A stretch of DNA of 13,572 bases, from positions 1-13,572 of the IMG/VR virus record IMGVR_UViG_2671180637_000017. One strand, given 5' to 3'. Source of the stretch: a virus. Taxonomy: Duplodnaviria; Heunggongvirae; Uroviricota; Caudoviricetes. A program made the position numbers and the translations under genes. Shown piece by piece: positions 1-13,572 of this stretch (its first letter is position 1; the number at the start of each line of letters is the position of its first letter). The notes under the pieces are model-generated. The model had not been told where the DNA came from. It did no database searches and worked only from the letters and a program-made list of their open reading frames with translations.

Positions 1-34
1 TCAGTCCGGAACAATTTGAAAACCAGAACCTCGC

Positions 35-922
35 TTAGGCCTGTGTCCATATTACGTGGGTAGGATCATACGTCGTGTCACCACAAATCCACGGCACATT
101 TACAGCACTGCCACCATGACACTGCGCGTTAAACACAGTGAGGTCAGCACGAAACTGCTTCAGCATGGCTGTAAACAGCGCAGGTTGCTGTGCGTGGGTG
201 GCGGCGCTCATGTCAAACTCTCCCTGCATCCAGCACACCGCCAGCAACACATTTTTCGGGTTCTTCTGTAATGCAGCTTTAGTGCGCGCAATCAGGTCCT
301 GATATAACGGTTTACCCACCCCCCAGCGCGCCGAATCCTGGCTGGCCCCCGCGTCCGCACTGAATGTCCCCTCCGCGCCCTGGGTGAATGCCGAACCACC
401 ACGACAGCATGGTACCAGCAGGATCCCCGCGTTATTCGGGATATACGGGAGCAGTTTTTTGGCAATATGTAAGCCCTGGCCGACACAGCCGTACTGCCCT
501 TTGCTCAGGTCTGCCTTCGGATGATTCAGCGTACTCATATCCTGCACATCATGCAGACAGTGGTCAGCCGGGATGATGTCGTTATACGTACAACTCTCTC
601 CACCCGGAGTTACCGTGCTGCGGCGCGCCAGCTGTTTAATGCGCGGATCCGGAGCATCGTAAGAATCCGGTAACGGAAGCCCTTCACCGTAGGCCATGCC
701 GTTGGACTGTCCGGCAAGCACAACCACGTAGAACCAGTCCGGCTCAGTTGCACCACTGACGACCACATCACCTTCTGCTGCAATCGCCTGCATCAGGGTA
801 TAAGGGGTTATGGCCACCGGACTACCAAACGGCTGCCAGCCCTCTTTCAGTTTATGTGTCAGCTTTTCCGCAAGGTCTGACGGCGACGCCGCCCTGACAA
901 CATCATAGTATTTAAATGCCAT
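35..922 (-). CDS. Prophage esterase: DUF1737-like N-terminus fused to an SGNH/SASA-family (sialate O-acetylesterase-like, NanS-p-like) domain
   Basis: 295-aa ORF with the SGNH-type GQSN block (VVVLAGQSNGMAYGEG). Its position downstream of Q and the tRNA array matches where this esterase family sits in lambdoid and Stx-type prophages. Family call is from memory, not searched. Confidence 0.7.
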   Translation of the reverse strand: MAFKYYDVVRAASPSDLAEKLTHKLKEGWQPFGSPVAITPYTLMQAIAAEGDVVVSGATEPDWFYVVVLAGQSNGMAYGEGLPLPDSYDAPDPRIKQLARRSTVTPGGESCTYNDIIPADHCLHDVQDMSTLNHPKADLSKGQYGCVGQGLHIAKKLLPYIPNNAGILLVPCCRGGSAFTQGAEGTFSADAGASQDSARWGVGKPLYQDLIARTKAALQKNPKNVLLAVCWMQGEFDMSAATHAQQPALFTAMLKQFRADLTVFNAQCHGGSAVNVPWICGDTTYDPTHVIWTQA

Positions 923-1371
923 GAATCCTCCCGGCCGGGATAATATTGTGAGTAAAATGAGGAGCGGGCTGAAGTCCGGAAGTTACAGGACAATGGCAGA
1001 AGAGAGACAACAGTCCGCAATACGAAAAAGGCCGCGCTATTGCGCAGAGTGATTACTGTCGGATATTATTCGCCAGCTGAAATATTACTTCACGTTTTGT
1101 TGTTTATTCCTTGCCGCCCGCGTCTCCCTGCGCGGGCTTTTTTTGTCCATAAGAAAGCCCCTCCGGAGAGGGGCTGGAGAGTGGCGCTATGTGCCATTGC
1201 ATGGTGCCGGGTGCCTCCCGGTGAATTCAGTACCAGCACCTGAATCCGCGATTATCCCATATACCTACTCGCTGATTGCCCCTCCGCACAGGTGGATTCA
1301 CCATGCCAGTTTCTTTTAACAAACTCCCCGCAAAACAGACAACTGTCAACCGTCTGAATTGTGAGACATTT

Positions 1372-1397
1372 AAAAAAAAGGCCCGCAAAAGCGAGCC
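1372..1397 (-). terminator. Rho-independent terminator downstream of the tRNA array
   Basis: Minus strand reads GGCTCGC-TTTT-GCGGGCC (7-bp stem with one G-U) followed by an 8-U run (plus-strand A8 at 1372-1379). Confidence 0.5.
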
Positions 1398-1413
1398 GGG
1401 AAAATAAGTGTAG

Positions 1414-1487
1414 CGCGTTGTACTGGAGTCGAACCAGTGACCGATTGCTTAGAAGGCAATTGCTCTGTCCTGCTGAGCTAACAACGC
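1414..1487 (-). tRNA. tRNA-Arg (anticodon UCU)
   Basis: Cloverleaf folded by hand on the minus strand: acceptor GCGTTGT/ACAACGC, D-stem GCTC/GAGC, anticodon stem ATTGC/GCAAT with loop CTTCTAA, T-stem ACTGG/CCAGT with loop TTCGACT, discriminator G. The 3' CCA is not encoded (CTA follows). Confidence 0.8.
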
Positions 1488-1500
1488 AGAATACCGATAA

Positions 1501-1576
1501 TGGACCACCACCGGGGACTCGAACCTCGCACACTCAACTTAAAGGGTTGACGCTCTTTCCTGATGGCTAGTGGCGG
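1501..1576 (-). tRNA. tRNA-like sequence, possibly degenerate; anticodon UUU if the loop is in canonical register
   Basis: 76-nt tRNA-shaped sequence with encoded CCA: acceptor CCGCCAC/GTGGTGG (one G-U), T-loop TTCGAGT, anticodon stem TCAAC/GTTGA with loop CCTTTAA. It has C rather than U at position 33, a poorly paired D-stem and an A-C mismatch in the T-stem. Confidence 0.45.
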
Positions 1577-1577
1577 T

Positions 1578-1653
1578 TGGTGGCCCTTGCTGGATTTGAA
1601 CCAGCGACCTGGCGATTATGAGTCGCTCGCTCTCACCACTGAGCTAAAGGGCC
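1578..1653 (-). tRNA. tRNA with CAU anticodon, ileX/ileZ-like tRNA-Ile2 (lysidine type) or Met
   Basis: 76 nt with encoded CCA: acceptor GGCCCTT/AAGGGCC, D-stem GCTC/GAGC, anticodon loop CTCATAA, T-loop TTCAAAT. It is the Q-proximal tRNA, as ileZ is in Stx/lambdoid prophages. Confidence 0.8.
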
Positions 1654-1758
1654 GGGCGCAGGATAATAACGTTACGAAATCAATGTTGCAAGCATACAAA
1701 AATCACCCTTATCTCCTCCACCAGCGCATTCACCATGTCTATCCGAGATAAGTGGCAC

Positions 1759-1782
1759 AAAAAAACCCGCTTGTGGGCGGGT
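1759..1782 (-). terminator. tR'-like rho-independent terminator between Q and the tRNA genes
   Basis: Minus strand CCCGC-CCACAA-GCGGG stem-loop followed by a 7-U run (plus A7 at 1759-1765). The plus strand also has a T-rich tail, so it may act bidirectionally. Confidence 0.6.
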
Positions 1783-1836
1783 TTTGTTTGCTTTTGCCAT
1801 CACGTACAAAATCGGCAAAATATCAGATTTGCATGA

Positions 1837-1865
1837 AATATATGCCTTTCAATCTACTTTTGCAA
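1837..1865 (-). promoter_or_regulatory. PR'-like late promoter with a downstream -10-like pause element (candidate qut region)
   Basis: Minus strand TTGCAA (plus 1860-1865), 17-bp spacer, TATATT (plus 1837-1842). The -35 overlaps the 3' end of the Q ORF. The predicted start is near 1830, followed by TGATATT (about 1819-1825) resembling a sigma70-dependent pause element. Confidence 0.5.
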
Positions 1866-2538
1866 CACTTTGCTTTGAAAATGCCGCCTTTTGTTTTGAA
1901 CGTGTTCTCATTACAAATAATAAAGCCTCACTATCCAGTCGGTGAAAAATGTGTTTCATTGCAACCCAGTGACGAGTAAATGTTTTGGACCAGTTTTTAG
2001 TTGTCACTCCCGCCAGTAATGCCAGCTCCTGATATTCATAACCTTCCCCACCAAAAAGTTCTGCTTTTACTGCCTGCGCCGCCAGCCAGATTAATTTTTT
2101 CAGGCGTTCCTGCGTTTTCCCAGCAATTTTTCTGGTACCGGATTGAGTATTAAATTCATTCCACGCCCACTGTGTTATCGCGATCTGATATTCCCAACAA
2201 ATACTCCCGCTGTAACACCACAACAACCAGGCTTTATGATGTTCTTCAAGAGACAGAACAGCCCGCCGCCACGATGATGTCAAAAACTCAACCGGACTGA
2301 CGAGAGGAATTGACGCCCCCTTCGCCAGCGATTGCTTTCCCGGGATTGGTGGATTATCCCGCGTTATCATTTTTCCAGTCACTTCATCGCGGTACCGGAT
2401 TTTTTTACGCCTGTAACGCCCTGTATCAAACATGGCATTCTCCTGCCAGGCCTCAAGCTGCCCTTTTGTTGATCCACTCAAATCGGCGGTGGCAATCATG
2501 AGTTGCTCACGAACAAACTGTAAATACTGGTTATTCAT
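1849..2538 (-). CDS. Late-gene antitermination protein Q-like
   Basis: 229-aa ORF immediately downstream of rusA with an ATGA start/stop overlap, followed by a PR'-like promoter, short terminator and tRNA array. The call rests mainly on synteny; sequence family not verified. Confidence 0.5.
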   Translation of the reverse strand: MNNQYLQFVREQLMIATADLSGSTKGQLEAWQENAMFDTGRYRRKKIRYRDEVTGKMITRDNPPIPGKQSLAKGASIPLVSPVEFLTSSWRRAVLSLEEHHKAWLLWCYSGSICWEYQIAITQWAWNEFNTQSGTRKIAGKTQERLKKLIWLAAQAVKAELFGGEGYEYQELALLAGVTTKNWSKTFTRHWVAMKHIFHRLDSEALLFVMRTRSKQKAAFSKQSVAKVD

Positions 2539-2894
2539 GCATACTCCAGTTCTGTGATTTTTATCCCCAACCGCCCACCAGGAACAAGCTGACCGCGCAC
2601 AATATTAATTTCATCAAACTGCTCGTCGTCTATGAGCAGCCCCGCATGCGTCAGTACATCCAGTGGTGCCTTCAGGATATTGTCCAGGTCACGACGGCGC
2701 TTATCCGGTGGCTCTGCAATAATTTCTATTGCCGGCCTTCCGGACAGGTTTAATTTCAGTTGCTGCTGGCGAACAATAAGCGCCACATCACGGCGATAAC
2801 GCTCACCGACTTTTGATACAAAATATGTGCTGCCACGGCGTCGCCAGTAAGTGTTCACCGTCGGCGGGTAAGGTAAAACCAAATCTATGAGCAT
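2535..2894 (-). CDS. rusA: Holliday junction resolvase RusA
   Basis: 119-aa protein with the conserved RusA core (PDKRRRDLDNILKAPLDVLTHAGLLIDDEQ) and a GGRL motif near the C-terminus; similar in length and motifs to E. coli RusA as recalled. Confidence 0.85.
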   Translation of the reverse strand: MLIDLVLPYPPTVNTYWRRRGSTYFVSKVGERYRRDVALIVRQQQLKLNLSGRPAIEIIAEPPDKRRRDLDNILKAPLDVLTHAGLLIDDEQFDEINIVRGQLVPGGRLGIKITELEYA

Positions 2895-2906
2895 CAGTCA
2901 CCTCTT

Positions 2907-3956
2907 TTACCCAAGCACGCCAGTTGCAAAGGCGTGATCAAGAAAACGAAAAATTAAATCAACCTGAGAACCATGCTTTTCTTCGAACGCCAGCGGATCC
3001 GCATGAAGCTCGTTGTGATGCTCCCGACACAGCGGTAGCGTGAAAATATCGTGAGATTTTGTCCCCATTCCGCCCTGACCATGACCAATCAGGTGATGGG
3101 GATCGTCGGCTGGCTTACCACAACACGCACACGGCTGTGTCTTCACCCAGCGTGTGTATTTCTCGTTAACCCAGCGGCGACGTTTAGGTCGTTTCATGAA
3201 AGATTCCGGAGACTCAGGATCAACGGCAATGCTGACCACCGTCTTTTCCTGTGGTGGGTTCTGTTGCTGGTGGGCGTGAGGCAGCGGCGCAAGATTTTTT
3301 GTGCGCTGTTTCAGTATGCTGGTGGCGGTCTGCTCTCCCGGTACGATGTCGCTTTCACGGTACATTGAGCGAATTTTTTCCGCACGCAACCCCAGCGAAC
3401 GACGTAATACCGCTTCCGGTAGCGCGTCCGCCACCTGATTGCGGACCGCCCACCAGGATAATTCAGCCAGCGATAATTCCCGTTCCTGCGAGCCATTCAT
3501 TGCATGGCGTATGACGTCAATCATCCATGCAGACAGGTTTTGGTGAGCAAGTTGCCCGAGTGATTCGGAGGTCTGGTCGCGCAGCTGGTTGTCGCAGTGC
3601 CAGCACAACACCATTGCGCCGGTACCATAACGGTGAATGACGGTTTCACTGTGGTGATAATCACCGTGTGGCCACTGGCAGGATTTAACATGGCGCAGTA
3701 ACCAGTCAGACAATGCGCCAGCGCCACCAGCAGCACGAATCACTCGTTCGTCGCTGAAAAATGGCAGTAATGATTTATCCTCCGCCAGCGGCTGGCGAAC
3801 GGCAGGAACGACCCCGGACGGCAGATTACGCATGCTTTTCGGTTCCGGCTCCACCAGTACCCGGGTATTGTGGAATACCGGCATGGATTCACGGCCCGGC
3901 TTAACGATCACCAGCCCGAGTTCCGGTACCAGAACAGGTCGAAGTAATACCCGCAC
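2907..3956 (-). CDS. DUF968-like lambdoid prophage protein (YdfU-like) with C-terminal HNH-like Cys/His motif
   Basis: 349-aa ORF; C-terminus CACCGKPADDPHHLIGHGQGGMGTKSHDIFTLPLCREHHNELH is Cys/His-rich like HNH/zinc-finger nucleases. Sits in the nin-like position upstream of rusA. Family call from memory. Confidence 0.55.
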   Translation of the reverse strand: MRVLLRPVLVPELGLVIVKPGRESMPVFHNTRVLVEPEPKSMRNLPSGVVPAVRQPLAEDKSLLPFFSDERVIRAAGGAGALSDWLLRHVKSCQWPHGDYHHSETVIHRYGTGAMVLCWHCDNQLRDQTSESLGQLAHQNLSAWMIDVIRHAMNGSQERELSLAELSWWAVRNQVADALPEAVLRRSLGLRAEKIRSMYRESDIVPGEQTATSILKQRTKNLAPLPHAHQQQNPPQEKTVVSIAVDPESPESFMKRPKRRRWVNEKYTRWVKTQPCACCGKPADDPHHLIGHGQGGMGTKSHDIFTLPLCREHHNELHADPLAFEEKHGSQVDLIFRFLDHAFATGVLG

Positions 3957-3957
3957 G

Positions 3958-4347
3958 TTACCTCCAGATCCGTTGCTGGAATGTGCGGGACGGACGCGGT
4001 GGGCGTTCGGAGTAAGGAAGCCTGACGGAGATTATCCAGTGACGGTAGTCGAGGCTAAGGGCTTTTTTAACCTCGTATCCGCGCCTGCGGTAACACTGAA
4101 TTATCCATTCAGCCTGCTCTTCAGTGCATGGTGGATGCTGGAACCAGTCCGATTTGAATGCATGAAAACGCCGTCCGCACCTGCTGGCAAAGACGGCAGA
4201 ATCATCAGAATTGTGTAATTTGGTATCGTGCGCCATCGGTTGTCTCTGCTGGCGCAGCAGGTGCCAGTTGTTCAGGCTGGCGTATAAAGTATAAATAAAC
4301 TGGTTCCAGTGTAAAGCCCCTACATTAATGGAATAAAAGTCAAACAA
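3958..4347 (-). CDS. Hypothetical prophage protein, start uncertain
   Basis: ORF abutting the start of the DUF968-like gene. The track start at 4347 is a TTG without a convincing SD; the internal ATG at 4234-4236 (MAHDTKL...) would give a 92-aa protein and may be the real start. Confidence 0.4.
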   Translation of the reverse strand: MFDFYSINVGALHWNQFIYTLYASLNNWHLLRQQRQPMAHDTKLHNSDDSAVFASRCGRRFHAFKSDWFQHPPCTEEQAEWIIQCYRRRGYEVKKALSLDYRHWIISVRLPYSERPPRPSRTFQQRIWR

Positions 4348-4501
4348 CAGATTGTTGGGATAAACACAACGCTTATTATTAAAAGCGATTAGATAAATTA
4401 AATTTTAATGTTATGCAATTTTACCAGATCACCATAACATCTCGTTTGAAACCACCGAAACAACAACCATATCAACATTGATTATGTTAAAGTGAGTAAA
4501 T

Positions 4502-4588
4502 ATGGAAAACAACAAATCTGCACATTACGCTCCTTTTTTATCTGTGATACTTTTTGTTTTATGCTGTGTGTGGGCATTATTTTTATAA
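4502..4588 (+). CDS. Candidate small hydrophobic peptide (28 aa) MENNKSAHYAPFLSVILFVLCCVWALFL
   Basis: ATG at 4502 with a weak upstream GTGAG, one predicted transmembrane-like segment, stop at 4586-4588. Convergent with hok and ending just before the shared hairpin at 4609-4626. No homology evidence. Confidence 0.2.
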   Translation: MENNKSAHYAPFLSVILFVLCCVWALFL

Positions 4589-4597
4589 AAATATTTA

Positions 4598-4627
4598 CAG
4601 ATAAAATAAACCCGCCGAAGCGGGTTA
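4598..4627 (-). terminator. Rho-independent terminator at the 3' end of the hok transcript
   Basis: Minus strand AACCCGC-TTCG-GCGGGTT stem-loop followed by a U-rich tail (TTATTTTATC). Confidence 0.55.
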
Positions 4628-4694
4628 AGTGCGGGTGCATTGAGGATGCCTGACACATCAGAGGTGGCGAGGGATTTCTCCCTCGCCGGGTCTC

Positions 4695-4850
4695 TTACTC
4701 CTCAGGTTCGTAAGCTGTGAAGACAGCGACCTCCGTCTGGCCGGTTCGGATTCGTACCTCGCAGAGGTCTTTCCTCGTTACCAGTGCCGTCACTATGACG
4801 GTTAAACAGATGACGATCAGGGCGATTAACATCGCCTTTTGCTGCTTCAT
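4695..4850 (-). CDS. hok: Hok-family type I toxin (51 aa), HokD/RelF-like
   Basis: MKQQKAMLIALIVICLTVIVTALVTRKDLCEVRIRTGQTEVAVFTAYEPEE: one transmembrane helix plus the conserved Hok C-terminus. Matches chromosomal HokD as I recall it; not verified by search. Confidence 0.85.
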   Translation of the reverse strand: MKQQKAMLIALIVICLTVIVTALVTRKDLCEVRIRTGQTEVAVFTAYEPEE

Positions 4851-4907
4851 AGCCTGCTTCTCCTTGCCTTTCGGCACGTAAGAGGCTAACCTAGATTTGC
4901 CGTTCAT
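4695..4907 (-). CDS. mok-like in-frame N-terminally extended reading frame over hok
   Basis: In-frame ATG at 4905-4907 with GAGG about 10 nt upstream, giving a 70-aa frame that shares the hok stop, as described for mok frames of chromosomal hok loci. Confidence 0.35.
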   Translation of the reverse strand: MNGKSRLASYVPKGKEKQAMKQQKAMLIALIVICLTVIVTALVTRKDLCEVRIRTGQTEVAVFTAYEPEE

Positions 4908-4958
4908 AGATTGAGCCTCAGATTAATGTTAAGCGTCTTGCAGGACGCGTAATGTTAA
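4899..4958 (+). ncRNA. Candidate sok-like antisense RNA
   Basis: Plus-strand TTGCCT (4864-4869), 17 bp, TAACCT (4887-4892) predicts a start near 4899. The transcript would be antisense to the mok start and SD and ends at hairpin GCGTC-TTGCAG-GACGC followed by GTAATGTT. Ends are predicted, not measured. Confidence 0.3.
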
Positions 4959-5446
4959 CTGGGGCTTTTCTCTATCTGCCGTTGGTGTTCATGCCTGAGA
5001 CAGATAGCCTCAAGCACCCGCAGCCATTCTACTTAACTCCCGTCACCTCGCCAATATGAAATCAGTCAGAAAGGCGATCCATAAGAACAACAGCAAGGCA
5101 ATAAATTGCCATTACAGCAGCAATAGCCAGCGCACATTTGAGAACCAGCACCACAACCTCCTGTATTGGACGTACACCAGTCCTGATAAATATGAGGCTG
5201 TCTCGTCAGTGATTCAATACAACTATTGGGTATAGTTTCTGTGATTTTGTTCTGTAGAAATGGAACACAACAACCAGTCACCACCAGCACTTCTTTAAAT
5301 ACGCCAAGTCCGACGCAAGCTAACCTTCTAGGCCGCTTTGAGCGAAGAGCGGACGCTCGCATCTGTCCCAACACACTGAGGGCTTCACGAACACCTAGGT
5401 GTACTCGTCAACTGGGAAAAAGTCAGATTATCTGCGTAAGTTTCAG

Positions 5447-5475
5447 CGTAAAAATTGGGCACTATAAAAGTGCCC
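5447..5475 (-). terminator. Rho-independent terminator closing the KAP NTPase island transcript
   Basis: Minus strand GGGCAC-TTTTATA-GTGCCC stem-loop followed by AATTTTTAC, 24 nt past the stop of the 713-aa ORF. Confidence 0.5.
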
Positions 5476-5498
5476 AAACTGTAGAAAAATACATAATG

Positions 5499-7640
5499 CT
5501 ATGTATCTGAGCCAAACATAGAGCGCCGCCTTGTTATTTTATAATAAGTGGGATTTTCATTATCCACCTCAAAATCAGAGAAGAAGTGGTTATCTCTTAA
5601 TGCTGTTAATAAACTTTGATTAGTTGAATCAACTTCAATTTTAGGTTTGCCTCGCCCCAAAATTTTACTGAACTCCGATAAACCAAGCAGATCAAGATAC
5701 TCTTTGCAAGTCGTCTTACTCAAATCCTTACCCGGCAACAAAGCGATTAGCAGTGCTATTTTATTCTGCATATTCAGTCCCTCTGCGACAAACAGGTTTT
5801 TTAGTAACGGTTCAGAAACATCATTAGGACTTGCTATCAATGCTGATATATCCTGTATTGCTCGACTCAAGATGAGCGACTGAGTAGAGGTTCCCCAAGT
5901 TTTATAAGATGACGTCAAGATTAGAAGTTCATCTGGTTTAAAATTATTTTCTAAAATATAGTCATTAACGACCTGAGAGTAATTCTTACTATAAATAGCC
6001 AACGGAGTTTTAACAAACTCGAGTAGCTTAACTTTCAAATCATCATCAACTTTCCAAGAAAGTATTGATATAGCCTCATCCAAAATAAAGTTATCAATCG
6101 TCATTAATTCAACGTATGCCCTGATATTCTTATGAATATAATAGGAAAGTTGCTCTGAATAGTTATCTCGTATGAAATTAAGTGGCGCAACATTCATACG
6201 AATAATATTTTTATCCACTAATATTTTGAACTTATCACTCGCGATATTACTAGCGCTAAAGGATGCTTTACAAATAATATTTAGTGAGCAAATTAATTTT
6301 TCATATTTATCATTTGATAAATCATTACAGATAACAATCGATTTAAATAATTTACCTTTAAGCTCGTTATCAATATTAATATTTTGAAAATTCAGGTCTA
6401 CATCAGTTCTATTGATAAATTCGATAAGTGAGTCATCCAGTCCATCAACATGTTCAAAATAAGAGACAATATTTTCCTCAGAGCACACTGCTCTATCTTT
6501 ATCCAACAAAGATGACCATAAAGATTCGCTCTCAACCTCACTCAGAGATGTCACGAAAGTTTGCAAAGCGTTTATATACTGGCCTTTTTGTTCATCAGAT
6601 ATTCCCTCATTATTAAGAACGGATAAAACAATGGATTCATCATCCACGATTGAACCATCACAACTAGATAAAACCATATCCAGATAGTCCCTAATATGGT
6701 TATTAACATAACTAGCCAAGGGAGAATCAGGTTGTGACATCACTAGTGTATAGTTCTTATGGCGAATATCATCTTCACTATTAAGCGTGTAAACCTTACT
6801 CAGCATTAAGGTCAGGTTGGAAAAATTAATATCATAAAGTGAATGCTGGTAAACCGCATCAAAGAGTACTTTATTTGCGTTTTCAAATTTAATACTGACA
6901 AAAGAGACGTTAAGCAACTTAAAACCACTAATTAATTTGTCAACCTTCGGTTCTGATATTGCTAAATAACCTGCCGAATCAGAGATGTAATCAGTCAGAC
7001 AATCATCAATATTAATGGCCTCGATGGCGTCATTGGCAGAATAATAAAACGTGCCTATAGAGTAGAGTTTAACCCAATCAGCAGAAAATTCACTCTCTGT
7101 CAGCGCATAAGAAAAAAACTCAGGCCACTGTGTATTTAATCGATTAATGAAGACAGGCTGAGCCCTCTCAGTTTCAAAGTAACCACGAATAAACTCAACT
7201 CTTCTATCTTTTCTTAGTTGTTTGAATAAACGTTTTATTAAGTTTACCTGGGCTGGCGTTTGAAGCAGATAAGCTAATAAATCAAAATTAAGCGCCTCTT
7301 CCTGTTCAAAATCCACTTCTCGAAGGCGGGCAACGACCAGCTTGGGGTTCTTGAGTTGATAAGTGAACTCTTTGCCTTTTTGATCGGTAATGCTGCGTAA
7401 AAACATCTTATCAATTCGACTCAGGCTATTTTCATAAAAATAGGTCATATAGTCGGTATAGGTTTCATCAATATAACCATCACGAATAAGGTATTTAAGC
7501 AAGTCAAAATACTCACTGCTTTTTATTTCATTAAAGTCTCTTTCCTCTCCAATTTCATTGGTATAGGTGAGTTTAAATATTTCATCAATGTTTTCTCTAG
7601 TTATTACTTCTTTAAGTCTTTTGTTTCTAGAATCAACCAA
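5499..7640 (-). CDS. Large alpha-helical protein, probably the C-terminal portion of the KAP NTPase gene
   Basis: 713-aa ORF in AT-rich DNA whose track start is a TTG. By hand translation the same frame stays open a further 75 codons upstream to 7865 (KKEIEAINDEILNSSQEVD...), where it meets the upstream ORF at an A6 run. Confidence 0.6.
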   Translation of the reverse strand: MVDSRNKRLKEVITRENIDEIFKLTYTNEIGEERDFNEIKSSEYFDLLKYLIRDGYIDETYTDYMTYFYENSLSRIDKMFLRSITDQKGKEFTYQLKNPKLVVARLREVDFEQEEALNFDLLAYLLQTPAQVNLIKRLFKQLRKDRRVEFIRGYFETERAQPVFINRLNTQWPEFFSYALTESEFSADWVKLYSIGTFYYSANDAIEAINIDDCLTDYISDSAGYLAISEPKVDKLISGFKLLNVSFVSIKFENANKVLFDAVYQHSLYDINFSNLTLMLSKVYTLNSEDDIRHKNYTLVMSQPDSPLASYVNNHIRDYLDMVLSSCDGSIVDDESIVLSVLNNEGISDEQKGQYINALQTFVTSLSEVESESLWSSLLDKDRAVCSEENIVSYFEHVDGLDDSLIEFINRTDVDLNFQNINIDNELKGKLFKSIVICNDLSNDKYEKLICSLNIICKASFSASNIASDKFKILVDKNIIRMNVAPLNFIRDNYSEQLSYYIHKNIRAYVELMTIDNFILDEAISILSWKVDDDLKVKLLEFVKTPLAIYSKNYSQVVNDYILENNFKPDELLILTSSYKTWGTSTQSLILSRAIQDISALIASPNDVSEPLLKNLFVAEGLNMQNKIALLIALLPGKDLSKTTCKEYLDLLGLSEFSKILGRGKPKIEVDSTNQSLLTALRDNHFFSDFEVDNENPTYYKITRRRSMFGSDT

Positions 7641-7735
7641 ACTTTCTCTTGATCTTGATATAAGCTCATTAATTTCTTCTATTTTACCATTAAATTTATT
7701 TTCAACACTTTCTTTTCTAGCCGCCCTTCTCTTTG

Positions 7736-9130
7736 CTATATCAGCTTTCTCAGCCTGATTATAGTGAGGATGATTATTATATCTAGATAATTCCTTATCG
7801 TATATAGCATCAACCTCCTGACTAGAGTTGAGTATTTCATCATTGATTGCCTCAATCTCTTTTTTCTATCTCTAATATCTTTTTCTATTTTCTTTATTTC
7901 TTCAATAATAAGGTTGTCTTTTTCACTAAATATGGTATAAACCATACCTTGATTAAGTTGCAACTCACTAAAATCTCTTGGGAAAATATTCTTATAGGCA
8001 ATAATGGCCAACATTTTATTACAGTCAAGTTCTGTCGTGTTTAATTTGTTATAATAAATTTGAAATTCGTTATAAATATTCTTCAATATTCTCATATCAT
8101 CAATATATAAAGACATCCCTTGTAGAAATCTTTCATTGAACAACTTGAGAATACCACCACCATCAAAATGTGTGATAAACTGATCGTAAGAGTTAGAACT
8201 ATCAACAACAGGAATAACTGGAATGATATAATCAAAGAATTTGGTTCTATCCTTCGAAATGAAGATATCATCACGAAGCAAGTAAATAAAACGTAACGTC
8301 GATTTCTTGTGCCCTGCTGTGTCCCGTTGAATATTAACCAGTCTGTTAACCTCATGAAGACGTTCAAAGATGTTATTACTATTAAAACGGTCCATGTCTT
8401 CAAAAACAATGGCATCAGCATCAACGTTCTCGAAAAGGTACAATACTTCATTTAAATATCTATCGAAATAAGACTCGTTACTTTCTTCAAAAATCTCTAT
8501 TTCATTACCCTGTAAATTTATTTTCTTAAGAACATTACGATTCTTTTGGATTTTTATTAACTTGTAAATGAAAATACAAGATAGGATAGTACATATAAAC
8601 CCACTAATTAAAAGCGTATCGTATTTAGTTGATAATGTAAGTAGTGTCTTTATATTACCTTCAGATAAAAGTGAAACAAACTTTTCCCACTTATTAAATA
8701 GCGTGATATGTAGTATCATGGCGATAAATAACACCGTAAAGATGGTGTTTATCACAATGTTGTTAGTTTTTATTTTTTTCTTTACTTTAAAATGTGTCTG
8801 GGGAATATCATCAGCATTAATTTGGTGAATTAACTGGTTAAGAACTTTACCTTCTAACGCGGTTTCATTTATATCTTTACTTGGTTCATTAGTTTCAGCT
8901 TCCTCAATCGATCTGAAATGAGCAAGTGAGATATGAACAAACTTTATATTTGAATGACTTTTCTTATAGGATTCGATAAGACTACTTTTTCCTGCGCTAT
9001 ATTGCCCTGATATCGCAACATTTTTTAGATCGTTATTGGCAAAAACAAAATCTATCGCATTTTTATATACACCCAGCTCAACATCGCTGAACGGAGTTAA
9101 CTTTTGAAATTTATAGCTATCATCACTCAT
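7736..9130 (-). CDS. KAP-family P-loop NTPase (N-terminal NTPase module with membrane insert)
   Basis: Walker A GQYSAGKSS (plus 8984-9007), two hydrophobic helices (IVINTIFTVLFIAMILHITLF and TLLISGFICTILSCIFIYKLI), then Walker B-like AIVFEDMDRF. A transmembrane insert between Walker A and B is the hallmark of KAP NTPases. SD GGGAAGGGA lies 5 nt before the ATG. The last ~45 codons look like out-of-frame read-through. Confidence 0.8.
   Translation of the reverse strand: MSDDSYKFQKLTPFSDVELGVYKNAIDFVFANNDLKNVAISGQYSAGKSSLIESYKKSHSNIKFVHISLAHFRSIEEAETNEPSKDINETALEGKVLNQLIHQINADDIPQTHFKVKKKIKTNNIVINTIFTVLFIAMILHITLFNKWEKFVSLLSEGNIKTLLTLSTKYDTLLISGFICTILSCIFIYKLIKIQKNRNVLKKINLQGNEIEIFEESNESYFDRYLNEVLYLFENVDADAIVFEDMDRFNSNNIFERLHEVNRLVNIQRDTAGHKKSTLRFIYLLRDDIFISKDRTKFFDYIIPVIPVVDSSNSYDQFITHFDGGGILKLFNERFLQGMSLYIDDMRILKNIYNEFQIYYNKLNTTELDCNKMLAIIAYKNIFPRDFSELQLNQGMVYTIFSEKDNLIIEEIKKIEKDIRDRKKRLRQSMMKYSTLVRRLMLYTIRNYLDIIIILTIIRLRKLI
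7859..7865 (-). other. Candidate -1 frameshift site A_AAA_AAG (or 1-nt indel in an A6 run) joining the two KAP ORFs
   Basis: The upstream frame reads AGA AAA AAG (R K K). A -1 slip or one extra A yields KKEIEAIN... continuous with the 713-aa ORF. The heptamer is the same as the dnaX slippery site. Confidence 0.4.
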
Positions 9131-9211
9131 TGATATCCCTTCCCAATCTTCACCGAGAGAGCTGGCTTTCGGAGTTAATCAAACAAAATCATGCAGATAA
9201 AATTTCGCCTT

Positions 9212-9220
9212 ATTATAGCA
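9212..9220 (-). promoter_or_regulatory. Extended -10 promoter (TGCTATAAT) for the KAP NTPase gene
   Basis: Minus strand TGCTATAAT with no good -35, about 80 nt upstream of the KAP ATG. Confidence 0.4.
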
Positions 9221-9529
9221 GACACAACTGCAAAGATTAGCTAAAGCCTCGTTGTTTTCTTCATCTATCCCTATAATTTTACACTACAGTTAGCACTTAC
9301 TATACCTGAAAGCTTTGCTCGTAAAGAGCACAATCGCAAGTCAGCAAAGCACGACTTTGCAATCGAGCGCCGCTAAAACAGTGCTGAATCGCTACGACTT
9401 AGGCAGCCATCTTATCGGTTGGCAGATAATTTCTAACTTCCGCTTCTGGCACAAAGCGGACAACCACGATAGCTCTATCCTGTGCCACAAAATGTCAATT
9501 CACATCTTAACTAATGCATTTTAATCTCG

Positions 9530-9952
9530 TCACTTTAATAAATACCGAACATTCCCCTGATAAAACGACAATATGCGCTGCATAACTTCGCTTTTACGAC
9601 ACTCAGTACAAATTATATTATGATGCCTGTCGTAACGACGTATTTCTCCATCAGGTAATGACCAGATAAGGTCCGGATCAACCGCAGATGGTTTCTTCAG
9701 CTTTGCCCTTGAGAGCTTTTTACGGGCATTTTGCCAGTCCTTACGCGCCTGTTCAGACGGGAATAACCCGTAACCAGAATTGTATACATCACCGCTGGCA
9801 ACCAGCTCTCTCGCGAGAACGCTCATCAGATATCTTGTCGCACCTGTCTTGACTTCCAGTTGTCGTAACGTCTCACGCCCACTCTGGCGTACGAGTTCAA
9901 CAACCTGCCCTTTAATTTTTTCTCGCTCTTCTTGTGTAAATACTTTTGCCAC
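9530..9952 (-). CDS. Hypothetical prophage protein (140 aa) downstream of the replication initiator
   Basis: Clean ORF with typical GC, 40 bp after the initiator stop; basic and Cys/His-containing (RYDRHHNIICTECRK). No family recognised. Confidence 0.5.
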   Translation of the reverse strand: MAKVFTQEEREKIKGQVVELVRQSGRETLRQLEVKTGATRYLMSVLARELVASGDVYNSGYGLFPSEQARKDWQNARKKLSRAKLKKPSAVDPDLIWSLPDGEIRRYDRHHNIICTECRKSEVMQRILSFYQGNVRYLLK

Positions 9953-9992
9953 AAGTCCTCCTGAAAATTACCTCATGACCTGAAATAAACAC

Positions 9993-11069
9993 TTACCCCC
10001 TGAAGCCCGGCGGAATTTCGGTATCCGGTTCAGAAATATGATTCACACAACGCTGGTTGTTCGTGCCGTTTACCGGGAGCAACCAGGGGTTTTCAAAATT
10101 CCGGTCCGGTCCAAAAAACGTCGTCGCTCGCTGAACAAATTCCGTTCCCGTTTTCCCGGTAACCGCCAGGTATCTTGCGTAACGCCTCACGCCATCCAGC
10201 ATGGCCTCTGGTGGCACCCCCTCGCGTAATCTGGCCTTCCAGGCACTGAAAGCGGATTTCTTCGGGTTTGCCCCGGCACGCAACGGGTACTCCCGCCAGA
10301 TCTGTTCGAACACATCCGGATAATCCACTCGTCCCACAGGCTGCCCGGTGTTTTCCGGGACTACCCGATCGGCTTCCCGCTGAATGGCGGAATCGGCTTC
10401 AGGCTGCTGCAGTTGGTGTGATTGCTCCGGCCTTGCGGTCATCACCTGCTGCACAGCGCCCGAATCGGCTTTCAGCGCATACGCTGAATCGGCTTCCGGT
10501 GTCGTGCCTGCTGGCTGACCAGGGTTGACGGTCTGAACATCCCCTGCCTGGTTCGTGGCGTTTTTTACGCCATGAACCATAGTATTTTGATCTTCTTGAT
10601 CTGTATCTTTATCTGTATCTTTATCTGTCGTGACTCGTCGTGACATGTGCGTGACATTTCGTGACGCGTCGTGACAATCGCCATTTTGTTCCCGCTTTCT
10701 TTCCCTCTCACGCTGCGCCCTCTTGCGCTCTGCCGGAGATTTTGCGGTTTGCGAAATATTGCCGTTGTCCTCTTTAAGCACCTGGCGTTTTTCCCATCCA
10801 GTGATTAAATCACCATCAAGTACCCGCCCCTGCATCGTCTGCAAAATTGAATCAATTACCTCTTCTGTCACGTCGAGCGCACTTGCCAAATCTTCTGTCG
10901 TGACATCAATGTGACCTCGCGTGACATTTCGTGACGCGCTCACCAGGAGGTGGATATACACTGCCATCACTGTTGCAATTGGCTGCCCTGACACCCTGGC
11001 AATTGTTCGCCACTTAGGGTCATTTGGCATGTCATGCCATAATCTGAGCCAGGCGTTAGCCATACTCAC
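9993..11069 (-). CDS. Replication initiator, lambda O-like / replisome-organizer type
   Basis: 358 aa: N-terminal winged-helix-like region (AWLRLWHDMPNDPKWRTIA...), low-complexity acidic/basic linker (DKDTDKDTD, ERKRAQRERERKRE) and a C-terminal domain. Iteron arrays lie inside the coding sequence, as ori-lambda lies inside O. Confidence 0.6.
   Translation of the reverse strand: MSMANAWLRLWHDMPNDPKWRTIARVSGQPIATVMAVYIHLLVSASRNVTRGHIDVTTEDLASALDVTEEVIDSILQTMQGRVLDGDLITGWEKRQVLKEDNGNISQTAKSPAERKRAQRERERKREQNGDCHDASRNVTHMSRRVTTDKDTDKDTDQEDQNTMVHGVKNATNQAGDVQTVNPGQPAGTTPEADSAYALKADSGAVQQVMTARPEQSHQLQQPEADSAIQREADRVVPENTGQPVGRVDYPDVFEQIWREYPLRAGANPKKSAFSAWKARLREGVPPEAMLDGVRRYARYLAVTGKTGTEFVQRATTFFGPDRNFENPWLLPVNGTNNQRCVNHISEPDTEIPPGFRG
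10588..10675. repeat. Origin-like element: two GATC sites, tandem ATCTGTATCTTT repeats, then five CGTGAC iterons phased at 10-11 bp
   Basis: CGTGAC starts at 10629, 10639, 10650, 10660 and 10670 (spacings 10, 11, 10, 10). Immediately preceded by about 2.5 copies of ATCTGTATCTTT from 10599 and GATC at 10588-10591 and 10598-10601. Confidence 0.55.
10867..10938. repeat. Second iteron cluster (CGTGAC/TGTGAC at 10-11 bp phase, with an inverted GTCACG)
   Basis: CGTGAC at 10899, 10920, 10930 and TGTGAC at 10910; inverted copy GTCACG at 10867-10872. The 20-mer GCGTGACATTTCGTGACGCG occurs in both clusters (near 10649 and near 10919). Confidence 0.45.
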
Positions 11070-11134
11070 CTCTTCTGATACCGAATCTTTTTACTCACGA
11101 GTTGCCGGAAGCGATTCGATATGACTATTGTCAG

Positions 11135-11560
11135 TCAATGTACTGCCACAGCATTTCCTGCCGGGCCACCACGGTTCATCTGATTGAAACCGGCGATTGC
11201 CACTGCGACAAAATCATCAGCGTCTCTCACCAATCGCTCCCGCGTCTCCACCAGCTCCCGAAAATAAGCTGAACTGTGGCTGCGCATTCTGGCCACCAGC
11301 AAAGGTGGCATTGCCTTTTCGATCGCTGGCAACAACGCCTTAATTTTTTCAACAGCATCAGGGGTGTCTTTCTCTACCCAGCGGAAAATTTTCTGGGTAT
11401 TGCGAGCCAGGGCTTCCGGATGGCTGTCGTCGTACAGTTCAGGAAACGTCATACCCAACTCAAAATAAGCCTGGGTTATTCCAGCTGCCGGAACTTTTTC
11501 GCCATCAGGACGCGCCCAGGCATTCATCGCCATGCGGATGTGTTCATGCTTGATTTTCAT
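11135..11560 (-). CDS. YdaT-like protein (CII-like position in Rac-type immunity regions)
   Basis: 141 aa starting MKIKHEHI, ATGA overlap with the cro-like stop. Resembles E. coli Rac YdaT in length, N-terminus and position as recalled. Confidence 0.5.
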   Translation of the reverse strand: MKIKHEHIRMAMNAWARPDGEKVPAAGITQAYFELGMTFPELYDDSHPEALARNTQKIFRWVEKDTPDAVEKIKALLPAIEKAMPPLLVARMRSHSSAYFRELVETRERLVRDADDFVAVAIAGFNQMNRGGPAGNAVAVH

Positions 11561-11811
11561 GAATCAACTCCCATCAGCTTTTTCGTAGTAGTTTTATTCC
11601 TGCCAATAGTTAAAATTGCATCGGCAGAAAATAATCCGTTTGATGCAAGAGCGATTTTTTCAGCGTAATTTGTTTCGCCGGTATATTCTGTGCGAGGCAA
11701 TTTTCCGTTATCCATCCATTTATAGATTGCTCTTTGGCTGACACCACAAACGTCGGCCACAACAGCAACGCGAACAGTTTTGATTACATCTTCAAGTGTT
11801 TTCTGGTTCAT
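11557..11811 (-). CDS. Cro/YdaS-like HTH transcriptional regulator
   Basis: 84 aa from the ATG at 11811 (MNQKTLED...), which has SD GAGGGTGAT 1 nt upstream; the longer track ORF to 11883 has no RBS. HTH segment DVCGVSQRAIYKWMDNGKLP. Divergent from the cI-like gene. Confidence 0.65.
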   Translation of the reverse strand: MNQKTLEDVIKTVRVAVVADVCGVSQRAIYKWMDNGKLPRTEYTGETNYAEKIALASNGLFSADAILTIGRNKTTTKKLMGVDS

Positions 11812-11890
11812 ATCACCCTCACAATGTGAACTTTGAGTACATGCTATAACAGAACTGACAGTACATTCAAGAGCGAATATCATTGAACTT
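11812..11890. promoter_or_regulatory. OR-like divergent promoter/operator region between cro-like and cI-like genes
   Basis: 79-bp intergenic with AGTACAT motifs (GAGTACATG near 11835-11843, CAGTACATT near 11859-11867). Leftward TTGAAT...TATAGC for cro; rightward CTGACA (11854-11859), 18 bp, TATCAT (11878-11883) placing the start at the cI ATG. Confidence 0.45.
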
Positions 11891-12310
11891 ATGGTTCATG
11901 AAGATAAAGCGCGTAAAGAGTTCGCCAGTAGGCTTGCGCTAGCCTGTGAAAACGCTGGTTATGAACAACATGGAAGGCAGGCAGAAATTGCCCGTCGAAT
12001 GAAATTAACACCAAAAGCGGTTAGCAAATGGTTTAATGGCGAAACAATTCCTCGCCGGGAGAAATTAAGGGAATTAGCAACACTAATAGGAACAACACCA
12101 ACCTATCTTTTGGGAGAGGATACAGAAGAAAGTGGACAGGTACGTTTCTATCAGGAGTTAAATCCAAGACAAAAAATCATCATTGACCTTCTGGACGAGC
12201 TCCCTGACAGTGAGACAGATGAACTTTTAAAAACTCTTGAAGAGAAAAAACAGAAGTACAATGCAATTTACGAAGAGTTAGCACGAAAGAAAAAACAAAA
12301 AGCCTCTTAA
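11891..12310 (+). CDS. cI-like prophage repressor (HTH XRE family)
   Basis: 139 aa with a classic XRE HTH (QAEIARRMKLTPKAVSKWFNGETIPRREKLRELATLIG) and a charged helical C-terminus. Divergent from the cro-like gene. Confidence 0.75.
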   Translation: MVHEDKARKEFASRLALACENAGYEQHGRQAEIARRMKLTPKAVSKWFNGETIPRREKLRELATLIGTTPTYLLGEDTEESGQVRFYQELNPRQKIIIDLLDELPDSETDELLKTLEEKKQKYNAIYEELARKKKQKAS

Positions 12311-12373
12311 ACCAGCATAAATCCGGTAGCGCCTTCCTCCGGGTTTGTGCTTCACTTTATCCCATCTCATTTT

Positions 12374-12432
12374 TTTACACACAAAATGTACTAAAAGTAC
12401 TTTAAAACAATGAACGCAAAGTGCATTATATA
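12374..12432 (+). promoter_or_regulatory. OL/PL-like promoter-operator for the rightward early genes
   Basis: TTTACA (12374-12379), 18-bp spacer, TACTTT (12398-12403), overlapped by ATGTACTAAAAGTACTT, which repeats the GTAC-core motif seen in the OR-like region. Confidence 0.35.
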
Positions 12433-12526
12433 CCTACCACCCACCCCGCCCCACAGAATGCAGGGCAATACTTCGAGTTACCCGGCAGTGGTCAGGGGTT
12501 AAGTAGCCAGCCCGAGGCGTAAGAAC

Positions 12527-12763
12527 ATGACGGCAGGGTTCAACTTTAATAACTATGCAGCAGGTTTTTGTTCCGCTACCCCGGCGTTAAGGGGAAATGA
12601 GGTCAGCATGGATACTATCGATCTTGGCAACAGCGAATCTCTGGTATGTGGCGTGTTCCCCAACCAGGACGGTACGTTCACCGCGATGACGTATACCAAA
12701 AGCAAAACGTTTAAAACCGAAAATGGTGCCCGTCGCTGGCTGGAAAGAAACTCAGGTGAGTGA
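12527..12763 (+). CDS. Small prophage early protein (YdaF-like); alternative start at 12608 gives a 51-aa product
   Basis: 78-aa ORF. The internal ATG at 12608 has a better SD (TGAGGT) and its product MDTIDLGNSESLVCGVFPNQDGTFTAMTYTKSKTF... resembles Rac YdaF as recalled. Confidence 0.5.
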   Translation: MTAGFNFNNYAAGFCSATPALRGNEVSMDTIDLGNSESLVCGVFPNQDGTFTAMTYTKSKTFKTENGARRWLERNSGE

Positions 12764-12764
12764 T

Positions 12765-12893
12765 ATGGATTTCGACACAATCATGGAAAAGGCTTACGAA
12801 GAATACTTCGAAGGTCTTGCCGACGGCGAAGAAGCTCTCGGCTTCAACGAATTTAAACAGGCGCTTTCCAGTTCGGCAAAATCTAACGGCTGA
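12765..12893 (+). CDS. Small acidic prophage protein (YdaG-like, 42 aa)
   Basis: ATG at 12765 follows the upstream stop with a 1-nt gap; MDFDTIMEKAYEEYFEGLADGEEALGFNEFKQALSSSAKSNG. Not in the supplied ORF track (below its length cutoff). Family from memory. Confidence 0.45.
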   Translation: MDFDTIMEKAYEEYFEGLADGEEALGFNEFKQALSSSAKSNG

Positions 12894-12922
12894 TAAGCGA
12901 AACAGCACCGCGAGGAATCAGT

Positions 12923-13141
12923 ATGCAGAAACGAGAACCCGTCATCATCGCGCCAGACTATACCGATGATGAACTTTATGAGTGGATGCGCCAGAAAATT
13001 AATGCAGCGCAGGATTTGAAATGGGCCAATGAAGCCAGGGCTAAGCAGGCTGAAAATCTGTCCGCTCTGGAGCAGGATATCACCAATCTGGAAAAAGCAG
13101 CGGCATTAAGCATTGCCAGAATGATTACATACCCGCGTTAG
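12923..13141 (+). CDS. Kil-like small protein (72 aa), possible cell-division inhibitor of the KilR type
   Basis: ATG at 12923 with GAGG 7 nt upstream; MQKREPVIIAPDYTDDELYEWMRQKINAAQDLKWANEARAKQ... Position in the early-left operon and resemblance to Rac KilR as recalled; unverified. Confidence 0.4.
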   Translation: MQKREPVIIAPDYTDDELYEWMRQKINAAQDLKWANEARAKQAENLSALEQDITNLEKAAALSIARMITYPR

Positions 13142-13572
13142 TAGCTAATCAACAAAGCTAAGGTTAGTAATTAAGGAGTTCTCCACGGGTGAGGTGGAGT
13201 GCGTGCGCCGGACACGGGTGAGCATCCGGCATTGACAGTTTACTGAAAGGATATTTCCCTGAAAAGTCAGACCATAACGCGAAAGCGCACGGCGAGGTAG
13301 CTGGTTCATAGATAGCCTGTCGTTAAATTTTCGTCGACCGTGCGCTTCCGGTTGTGGCAATCCGCGAAATGGCGCGGCGGTAAGTATGGCGGGGTTATTC
13401 CTTCCCCCGTTGAGGACACCGGGTTGTCAGGTTGACCATACGCTTAAGTGACAACCCCGCTGCAACGCCCTCTGTTATCAATTTTCTGGTGACGTTTGGC
13501 GGTATCAGTTTTACTCCGTGACTGCTCTGCCGCCCTTTTTAAAGTGAATTTTGTGATGCGGTGAATGCGGCT

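Follow-up and report, generated by a model that had tools for sequence, protein, structure and literature searches.

A candidate replication origin with two phased iteron arrays inside the initiator gene of an Escherichia coli lambdoid prophage

Where does the replication of a lambdoid prophage start, and why should its initiator gene contain two arrays of the same short repeat? These questions are raised by a stretch of 13,572 nucleotides (nt), in the following called the window, which corresponds to positions 1 to 13,572 of the IMG/VR virus record IMGVR_UViG_2671180637_000017 and represents an E. coli lambdoid prophage. A replication initiator gene is found at positions 9993..11063, on the minus strand, and an initial annotation of this DNA had placed a candidate replication origin within it, on the basis of two clusters of the hexamer CGTGAC, about 230 bp apart, and of an AT-rich repeat block. 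The analyses reported here indicate that the segment 10549-10935 is most likely the vegetative replication origin of the prophage, and that the second of the two arrays is probably a functional initiator-binding site, both conclusions being drawn from sequence comparisons. The location of an origin inside a lambdoid initiator gene is expected; the new elements are a second array, family-wide and co-varying with the first, an overlapping code within the DNA-binding domain, and a conserved (GATAAA/GATACA)n block.

Phased arrays, AT-rich block and palindrome

The initiator gene starts from an ATG at 11063, while the longest open reading frame (ORF) extends to a GTG at 11069, for a product of 356-358 amino acids. 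Over its full length the protein corresponds to phrog_3729 'replication initiation protein' (E 9e-256), and in RefSeq it is named 'phage replisome organizer'; the assignment also relies on the annotation of Escherichia phage Tritos. Since the gene lies on the minus strand, the motif reads GTCACG in gene sense. All the five copies predicted between 10629 and 10675 were located by motif scan (array 1, 10629..10675, minus strand), CGTGAC being found at 10629, 10639, 10650, 10660 and 10670 of the plus strand, with spacings of 10, 11, 10 and 10 bp. The four copies claimed at 10899-10935 do form four phased units (array 2, 10899..10935, minus strand), but only three of them, at 10899, 10920 and 10930, are exact, while the one at 10910 reads TGTGAC, or GTCACA in gene sense; spacings are 11, 10 and 10 bp. 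The shorter GTGAC starts, on the plus strand, at 10630, 10640, 10651, 10661 and 10671, and again at 10900, 10911, 10921 and 10931. The motif scan added a feature to those initially described, a single inverted copy at 10867..10872, on the plus strand, 28 bp from array 2, which overlaps codons D66-V67-T68 and occupies the same position in most homologs of the GTCACG class defined below.

The window contains 12 copies of CGTGAC, against 4.25 +/- 2.06 expected, and none of 200 shuffles reaches 12. Between 10500 and 11100, 9 of the 10 same-strand copies of GTGAC fall in the two phased arrays, and the 13.5-kb window has no phased cluster of the motif outside them. Three GTGAC copies at 13448-13522 were considered as a distant second site and rejected, as they are unphased and overlap the DicF RNA gene.

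The gap between the arrays is 223 bp, and their first units are 260 nt apart in gene sense. Along the gene, array 2 (nt 135-171) comes first, then the inverted copy (nt 198-203) and array 1 (nt 395-441), and lastly the AT-rich block and the palindrome. Array 1 encodes residues ~132-147, between two protein domains; array 2 encodes residues 45-57, within the N-terminal domain, corresponding to the end of the third helix and the following loop in the AlphaFold2 (AF2) model, and the inverted copy encodes the turn of a predicted helix-turn-helix. Each unit has a core of 6-7 bp and lacks any internal dyad, and the units are repeated directly, with a period of 10-11 bp.

The repeat search suggested by the initial annotation was performed by using Tandem Repeats Finder, which reports a 10-bp unit repeated 5 times at 10626-10676 and, next to it, the 12-bp tandem ATCTGTATCTTT, repeated 2.9 times at 10594-10628, which in gene sense reads (GATAAA/GATACA)n. 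The latter is part of a candidate DNA-unwinding element (10580..10628), AT-rich and with a purine-rich gene-sense strand. The two GATC sites expected to flank array 1 together with the AT-rich repeats are found at 10589-10592 and 10598-10601, and are loosely conserved among homologs. GC content is down to 26% at 10575-10624, and the least stable 40-mer of the gene coincides with the AT-rich block (-43.0 versus a mean of -57.3 +/- 4.0 kcal/mol, 3.6 standard deviations below). On the far side of the block from array 1 lies a 13-bp inverted repeat, TGGTTCGTGGCGT-5 nt-ACGCCATGAACCA (10549-10561 / 10567-10579; 92% complementary). This palindrome (10549-10579) is terminator-like on the antisense (plus) strand only, where it is followed by the tail TAGTATTTTG; such sites occur in the region in the number expected by chance.

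Recurrence and DNA-level constraint among homologs

A genomic scan, in which one genome per species was retained, produced 80 loci, ranging in identity from 34 to 99% and found in Gamma-, Beta- and Alphaproteobacteria, among others. With few exceptions, the 5-mer of the ORF with the best helical phasing forms a chain in the linker, at nt ~330-470, and in most loci a second chain, equal in sequence to the first, is found at nt ~117-180, within the N-terminal domain (N-domain). The unit consensus is NNNACG(C), with classes GTC, GTA, GCA, GTG, CGA, GGA and a few rarer ones, and motifs are lineage-specific (GTCACG, GTAACGC, GCAACGC, GTGACG, CGAACGC). When the motif was defined from the linker alone, at least 3 copies were detected within a 110-nt interval of the N-domain in 44 of 76 loci; on average N-domains contain 2.54 copies of their own linker motif, versus 0.25 for the motifs of other classes. 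The 50 nt past the last linker unit have a GC content below that of the ORF in 70 of 72 loci (mean -0.19), and their sense strand almost always contains AGATAAAGATAAAGA, AGATACAGATACAGA or AGAGAAGAGGAGA, in blocks of the AGATAAAGATA / AGATACAGATA type, beyond which a GC-rich palindrome is often present. The recurrence of arrays and AT-rich block across the 80 homologs argues for the proposed origin.

Within the 30-60 nt after the AT-rich block, several distantly related loci (among L089, L105, L004, L135 and L098) share a short, near-identical element, (c)ctcactacgttcgg(t/a)agg, just past (GATAAA)n. Other loci have, at that position, a C-rich/G-rich palindrome, ccccccttaccccccagggg, and the 13-bp palindrome of the window is placed equivalently.

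A first scan, on viral contigs, had returned only E. coli loci at 99% identity, which are uninformative on co-variation but informative on the stability of the layout: of 81 near-identical viral contigs of E. coli, 73, that of Tritos among them, have the same arrangement of four plus five units.

Searches by tblastn against phage genomes showed that the initiator is modular, as the matches of relatives sharing only the N-terminal or only the C-terminal part break at residues 140-160, a position coinciding with array 1 and the AT-rich block (residues ~132-163). The region of residues 3-140 has a 69.5% identical counterpart in an ORF of Pseudomonas phage phi1, the C-terminal half of which is unrelated, while residues 160-358 share 64% identity with the 'O / primosomal protein I' of Stx-type phages, whose N-terminal domain differs. 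In phi1 the array of the N-domain and the inverted copy are both present, and four GTCACGC units, spaced 10 bp apart, precede the AT-rich tgtataaagatacagaagaagagaaag; the phi1 linker peptide differs from that of E. coli, though the DNA motif is retained. In Ralstonia phage Firinga, whose N-domain is 37% identical, the units of both arrays read GCAACGC, the first array being accommodated by an insertion in the peptide. The linker of a metagenomic myovirus contains GAAACGC/GTAACGC units, followed by (CAGAGA)2(CAGATA)4. N-domains of the GTCACG class are fused to at least 8 unrelated clusters of C-terminal domains, and each cluster is in turn combined with more than a single iteron class, in fact with several; it is therefore the N-domain that the repeat goes with, and not the shuffled C-terminal domain.

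The 310-aa (amino acid) initiator ORF of phi1, with both arrays, is unannotated in KT887557.1 (32901-33833 reverse), where the feature table has a gap between a 68-aa ORF and 'replication protein P'. Some metagenomic proteins of ~180-190 aa (P0042, P0060, P0061, P0073, P0097, P0098, P0105) match the N-domain at 56-72% identity and carry precomputed HNH endonuclease Pfam domains (PF01844, PF14279), which suggests either origin-binding-domain fusions or truncations beside an HNH gene. Two non-mobilizable 50.9-kb Pseudomonas aeruginosa 'plasmids' (CP137943.1, CP124671.1) encode an N-domain of the GTCACG class, at 69.5% identity, and are probably circular D3-like phage genomes assembled as plasmids. 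The few matches found in a plasmid database were discarded as dedicated replicons, since they appear to be either circular phage genomes or prophages contained in large records.

Among the explanations other than an origin, the one that survives best is that the arrays are purely regulatory, acting in autorepression, as a transcriptional roadblock in the early operon or in copy-number/incompatibility control, with replication starting elsewhere. Control iteron arrays are known from plasmid P1 (incA), the arrays of the initiator gene lie within a transcribed sequence, and array 2, missing from a large minority of homologs, may resemble an accessory control element. This explanation is nevertheless unlikely, because the linker array is always directly followed by the AT-rich, strand-skewed block, and often by a palindrome, which is the layout of an origin rather than of an operator; moreover, array 1 coincides with the junction of the domains, a position shared with ori-lambda and SPP1 oriL, and no further phased cluster of the motif is available elsewhere in the window.

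The AGATAAAGATA-type block and the arrays could also be mainly a homology patch, used for the exchange of N- and C-terminal modules between phages, and not an origin. The junction of the N-domain with many unrelated C-terminal domains falls exactly at the block, whose sequence is similar in very distant lineages, but a patch leaves unexplained both the lineage-specific phased arrays, co-varying with the N-domain, and the synonymous constraint on the second array described below. Lambdoid O genes, whose origin function is proven, also exchange modules at the origin, and the two roles are therefore not exclusive; as a replacement for an origin, the patch appears very improbable.

Selection on array 2 was evaluated on a codon alignment of 23 homologs of the GTCACG class, at 55-89% amino-acid identity. 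Synonymous identity at the motif codons is 0.91 for S46 (TCA) and 1.00 for V49 (GTC), T50 (ACG), G52 (GGT), H53 (CAC), V56 (GTC) and T57 (ACG), and reaches 0.99 for V67 (GTG), in the inverted copy. Codons between units vary (0.27 for R51, 0.38 for I54), and other conserved 4- or 6-fold degenerate codons are at ~0.2-0.4. As motif codons are nearly invariant and spacers are free, array 2 is under purifying selection at the DNA level, in addition to the protein constraint. At the position of H53 the GTC, CGA, GCA and GTG classes have H, R, N and D/E, respectively; the loop residues follow the iteron class, hence the binding site shapes the protein and not the reverse. Mutual information between iteron class and N-domain residues is highest for the codons overlapping iterons (residues 42-56 and ~100-106).

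As for residues ~100-106, homologs of the AACGC class (L113, L117, L123, L130) have an extra single iteron between the arrays, about nt ~310 from the start of the N-domain; it lies in the disordered segment after the wing and gives class-specific residues there.

These data bear on the possibility that array 2 is a non-functional relic of a duplication of array 1, or array 1 of array 2. The two encode near-identical peptides (ASRNVT) and are 74% identical over 39 nt, which speaks for it, but a relic would not be expected to keep synonymous identities of 0.91-1.00 across homologs so diverged, nor to switch motif together with array 1 in at least 5 iteron classes. We regard it as highly unlikely.

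The initial annotation had also reported short peptide repeats, ASRNVT..VTT (twice) and DKDTDKDTD, as imposed by the DNA repeats. They are present in the translation, and three independent tests agree that the repeats are DNA-level elements and not a by-product of the peptide. Because of the 10-11 nt spacing, the motif occurs in all three frames (2, 0, 1, 0 along array 2; 1, 2, 0, 2, 0 along array 1). In the second test the peptide was held fixed and codons were drawn from the usage of the window itself: array 1 contains 5 GTCAC against 0.84 expected, and array 2 contains 4 against 0.48 (P=2e-4 for each). The third is the frozen state of the synonymous sites of the motif codons, next to variable spacer codons. 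The reverse explanation, that the repeats are required by the peptide and the DNA periodicity follows from it, can practically be dismissed: the peptide repeats are real, and that of array 2 is partly conserved at the amino-acid level, but besides failing these tests it does not account for linker peptides that differ between E. coli and Pseudomonas around the same DNA motif, nor for loop residues that track the iteron class.

Initiator protein, proposed mechanism and known systems

Three parts are distinguished in the initiator: an N-terminal domain resembling a winged helix, a linker, and a DnaD/DnaT-like domain at the C-terminus. The predicted DNA-binding domain (10785..11063, minus strand), presumed to be the iteron reader, was analyzed by using AF2, Foldseek and PF09681. 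The AF2 model of residues 3-130 has a mean predicted local distance difference test (pLDDT) score of 81.7, and shows helices at 4-14, 16-25 and 29-45, a loop, helices at 56-63 and 67-77 and a beta hairpin; the modelled fold would thus be winged-helix-like, with three helices, a loop, and a helix-turn-helix plus beta hairpin. A single domain of this type is present in the model, not a WH1-WH2 fold. Top Foldseek matches are all winged-helix regulators (MepR, CRP/FNR, FixK2, DasR), none significant (E≥0.2). The N-domain matches positions 1-119 of the 121 of PF09681 (Phage_rep_org_N), with E=0.0081 and 16.6 bits, below the gathering score of 23.3, and PHROG 'replisome organizer' families match the initiator at 4e-6 and 1.3e-4; membership of the PF09681 replisome-organizer family may be weakly supported by these similarities. 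A Pfam scan of the full protein found no family at E≤0.01, separate scans of the N- and C-terminal parts found no lambda O family at E≤10, and no Rep family matched in Pfam or NCBIfam.

The C-terminal domain (9996..10592, minus strand; phrog_1701, phrog_9327) is DnaD/primosomal-like and presumed to be the module recruiting the host replisome. The last 25 residues (9996-10070, minus strand; ending NHISEPDTEIPPGFRG) closely resemble the C-terminus of E. coli DnaT (SEPDxxIPPGFRG), and match NCBIfam NF002770 and the DnaT chains 6aep, 2ru8 and 9zbt in PDB (E 0.004-0.013). With such a tail, and no phage loader gene following, the initiator may mimic DnaT to reach the host DnaB-DnaC.

From the features described above we infer initiator binding, DNA unwinding, helicase recruitment and control, which could be arranged as follows. 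The N-terminal winged-helix-like domain would read the 6-7 bp core GTCACG which, being present once per helical turn, would let protomers stack on one face of the DNA. The five sites in the linker-coding region would nucleate an initiator oligomer, one protomer per turn, able to strain and open the adjoining AT-rich, purine-skewed (GATAAA/GATACA)n block. The host helicase machinery would then be recruited by the C-terminal domain, DnaD/DnaT-like and exchangeable, the prophage having no loader of its own. Array 2, with four direct copies and one inverted, ~260 nt upstream, would bind the same initiator, and could serve to form a looped or wrapped complex, to handcuff sister origins, to limit initiation, or to attenuate transcription of its own gene. 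The helical phase between the arrays of homologs gives R=0.29 (Rayleigh p=0.11 at 10.5 bp, unique distances), a value confounded by gain and loss of 10-bp units.

A number of results weigh against an origin at this site. DnaA-box matches are as many as expected by chance, none of them in the origin region, which has no IHF consensus match either; AT-rich cargo genes elsewhere in the window are less stable than the AT-rich block. About 40% of homologs lack array 2, which is therefore not essential to the design and appears accessory. Nothing significant was found, by sequence or by fold, when the N-domain was compared with solved structures, and its tie to a known DNA-binding family is a weak one, PF09681 remaining below cut-off; the class-tracking residues do not yield an independent recognition code in the N-domain. 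A full-text search, with most subscription journals outside its reach, found no publication on this origin, its iteron classes or the embedded second array. The iterons of a paper on Pf-5, considered in this connection, belong to a different element.

The layout advanced initially as that of ori-lambda holds as a design, with iterons and AT-rich block inside the initiator gene, and not as homology or in the type of unit: the segment resembles ori-lambda and SPP1 oriL, but is not homologous to ori-lambda, and the protein is not of the lambda O family. In common with gene O of lambdoid phages are the position of the origin in the initiator gene, at the linker; an origin-specific N-domain combined with an exchangeable C-terminal domain; the order of iterons, AT-rich strand-asymmetric region and palindrome; and the location downstream of cro and cII-like genes, in an early operon of the rightward type. 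Unlike O, the initiator has no lambda O Pfam match; its 6-7 bp core recurs every 10-11 bp, whereas lambda has four to six dyad-symmetric iterons of ~19 bp; the codons of its DNA-binding domain include a second array; and the next gene is DUF977 instead of a P-like loader.

In SPP1, gene 38 contains an AT-rich unwinding element and, beside it, the direct repeats bound by its product G38P, which has a second binding locus as well (PMC6316719). The prophage shares with SPP1 oriL / G38P (PF09681) the combination of direct repeats and AT-rich unwinding element in the organizer gene, together with a weak, full-length N-domain similarity to PF09681 and to PHROG 'replisome organizer' families, which for Pfam is below cut-off. 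It differs in that the second site is ~260 nt away in the same gene, versus ~13 kb in SPP1, in that its hosts are Proteobacteria, while SPP1-type organizers occur in phages of Gram-positive bacteria, and in that the window lacks loader and helicase genes of the G39P/G40P type.

Two separate clusters of one initiator-binding repeat, the second of which is needed for initiation or controls it, are also found in P4 (ori/crr) and P1 (incC/incA), and the two-array layout is alike. Their initiators, the P4 alpha primase-helicase and P1 RepA, are unrelated to the present one, and their arrays are intergenic, kilobases or a whole gene apart, and outside the codons of a DNA-binding domain. Iteron plasmids with handcuffing (P1, F, RK2, pPS10) have WH1-WH2 Rep proteins and iterons of ~17-22 bp, as opposed to units of 10-11 bp; in the prophage, as these replicons would lead one to look for, a second array exists and co-varies with the first, while helical phase from one array to the other is, by the p value given above, not clearly conserved. 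If array 2 does control initiation, it would represent a compact phage analogue of plasmid handcuffing.

A wider proposal is offered tentatively, as a possibility more doubtful than the origin itself. It holds that a widespread proteobacterial design exists, in which the initiator would read a lineage-specific NNNACG(C) and a second array of the same heptamer would dictate a surface loop of the DNA-binding domain; array 2 would be mechanistically distinct, either looping with the origin array for open-complex formation or handcuffing/auto-limiting, and the near-universal (GATAAA/GATACA)n would be a sequence-specific single-strand landing site, and not just a stretch rich in AT. The comparative set constitutes a specificity series, pairing NNNACG(C) motifs with matching N-domains, on how a small winged-helix initiator reads DNA, and a clean natural case of a coding sequence constrained by an overlapping DNA-binding code. 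Further origins of this family may also be predicted from it by a simple rule, looking where the two domains join for phased heptamers with (GATAAA)n after them; the origin is annotated nowhere among the records examined.

Prophage context and neighbouring genes

Several E. coli chromosomes match a 3-kb stretch around the site at 99% identity, and in phage Tritos, deposited as a complete genome, the module is found at 97.5% identity. When the 3-kb stretch was used as query, a match covering at least 80% of it was found in 329 of 5,426 complete genomes, so that the replication module is common in E. coli.

The initiator follows a cI-like repressor gene (11891-12310, plus strand), a cro-like gene (11557-11883, minus) and a cII/YdaT-like gene (11135-11560, minus), in the canonical order cI / cro / cII-like / initiator. 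The next gene after it is DUF977/Ren-like (9530-9952, minus), followed by a YobI-like ATPase gene. No P- or DnaC-type helicase loader gene is found downstream of the initiator; a DnaC-like gene is present in relatives sharing its C-terminal domain (e.g. PhiR5_2).

The YobI-like P-loop NTPase (7736-9130, minus; PF20693, E 9e-124) also has a match (E 7e-57) to the PADLOC defence protein Tmn, in the N-terminal third of the latter, and the NTPase gene is followed by a 713-aa ORF without family match (5499-7640, minus). Both lie in a low-GC cargo region directly downstream of the replication module, and could be a split or variant Tmn-like anti-phage system.

Promoter and terminator scans returned counts corresponding to chance expectation. 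RNA features are located at 13484-13535 (plus), 4845-5019 (minus), 1145-1335 (minus) and 1413-1653 (minus). Rfam matches in the window include the DicF small RNA, a sok antitoxin RNA (hok/sok-type) and STnc100, and ARAGORN predicts three tRNA genes (Arg-tct, Lys-ttt, Met-cat), two of which are also reported by Rfam.

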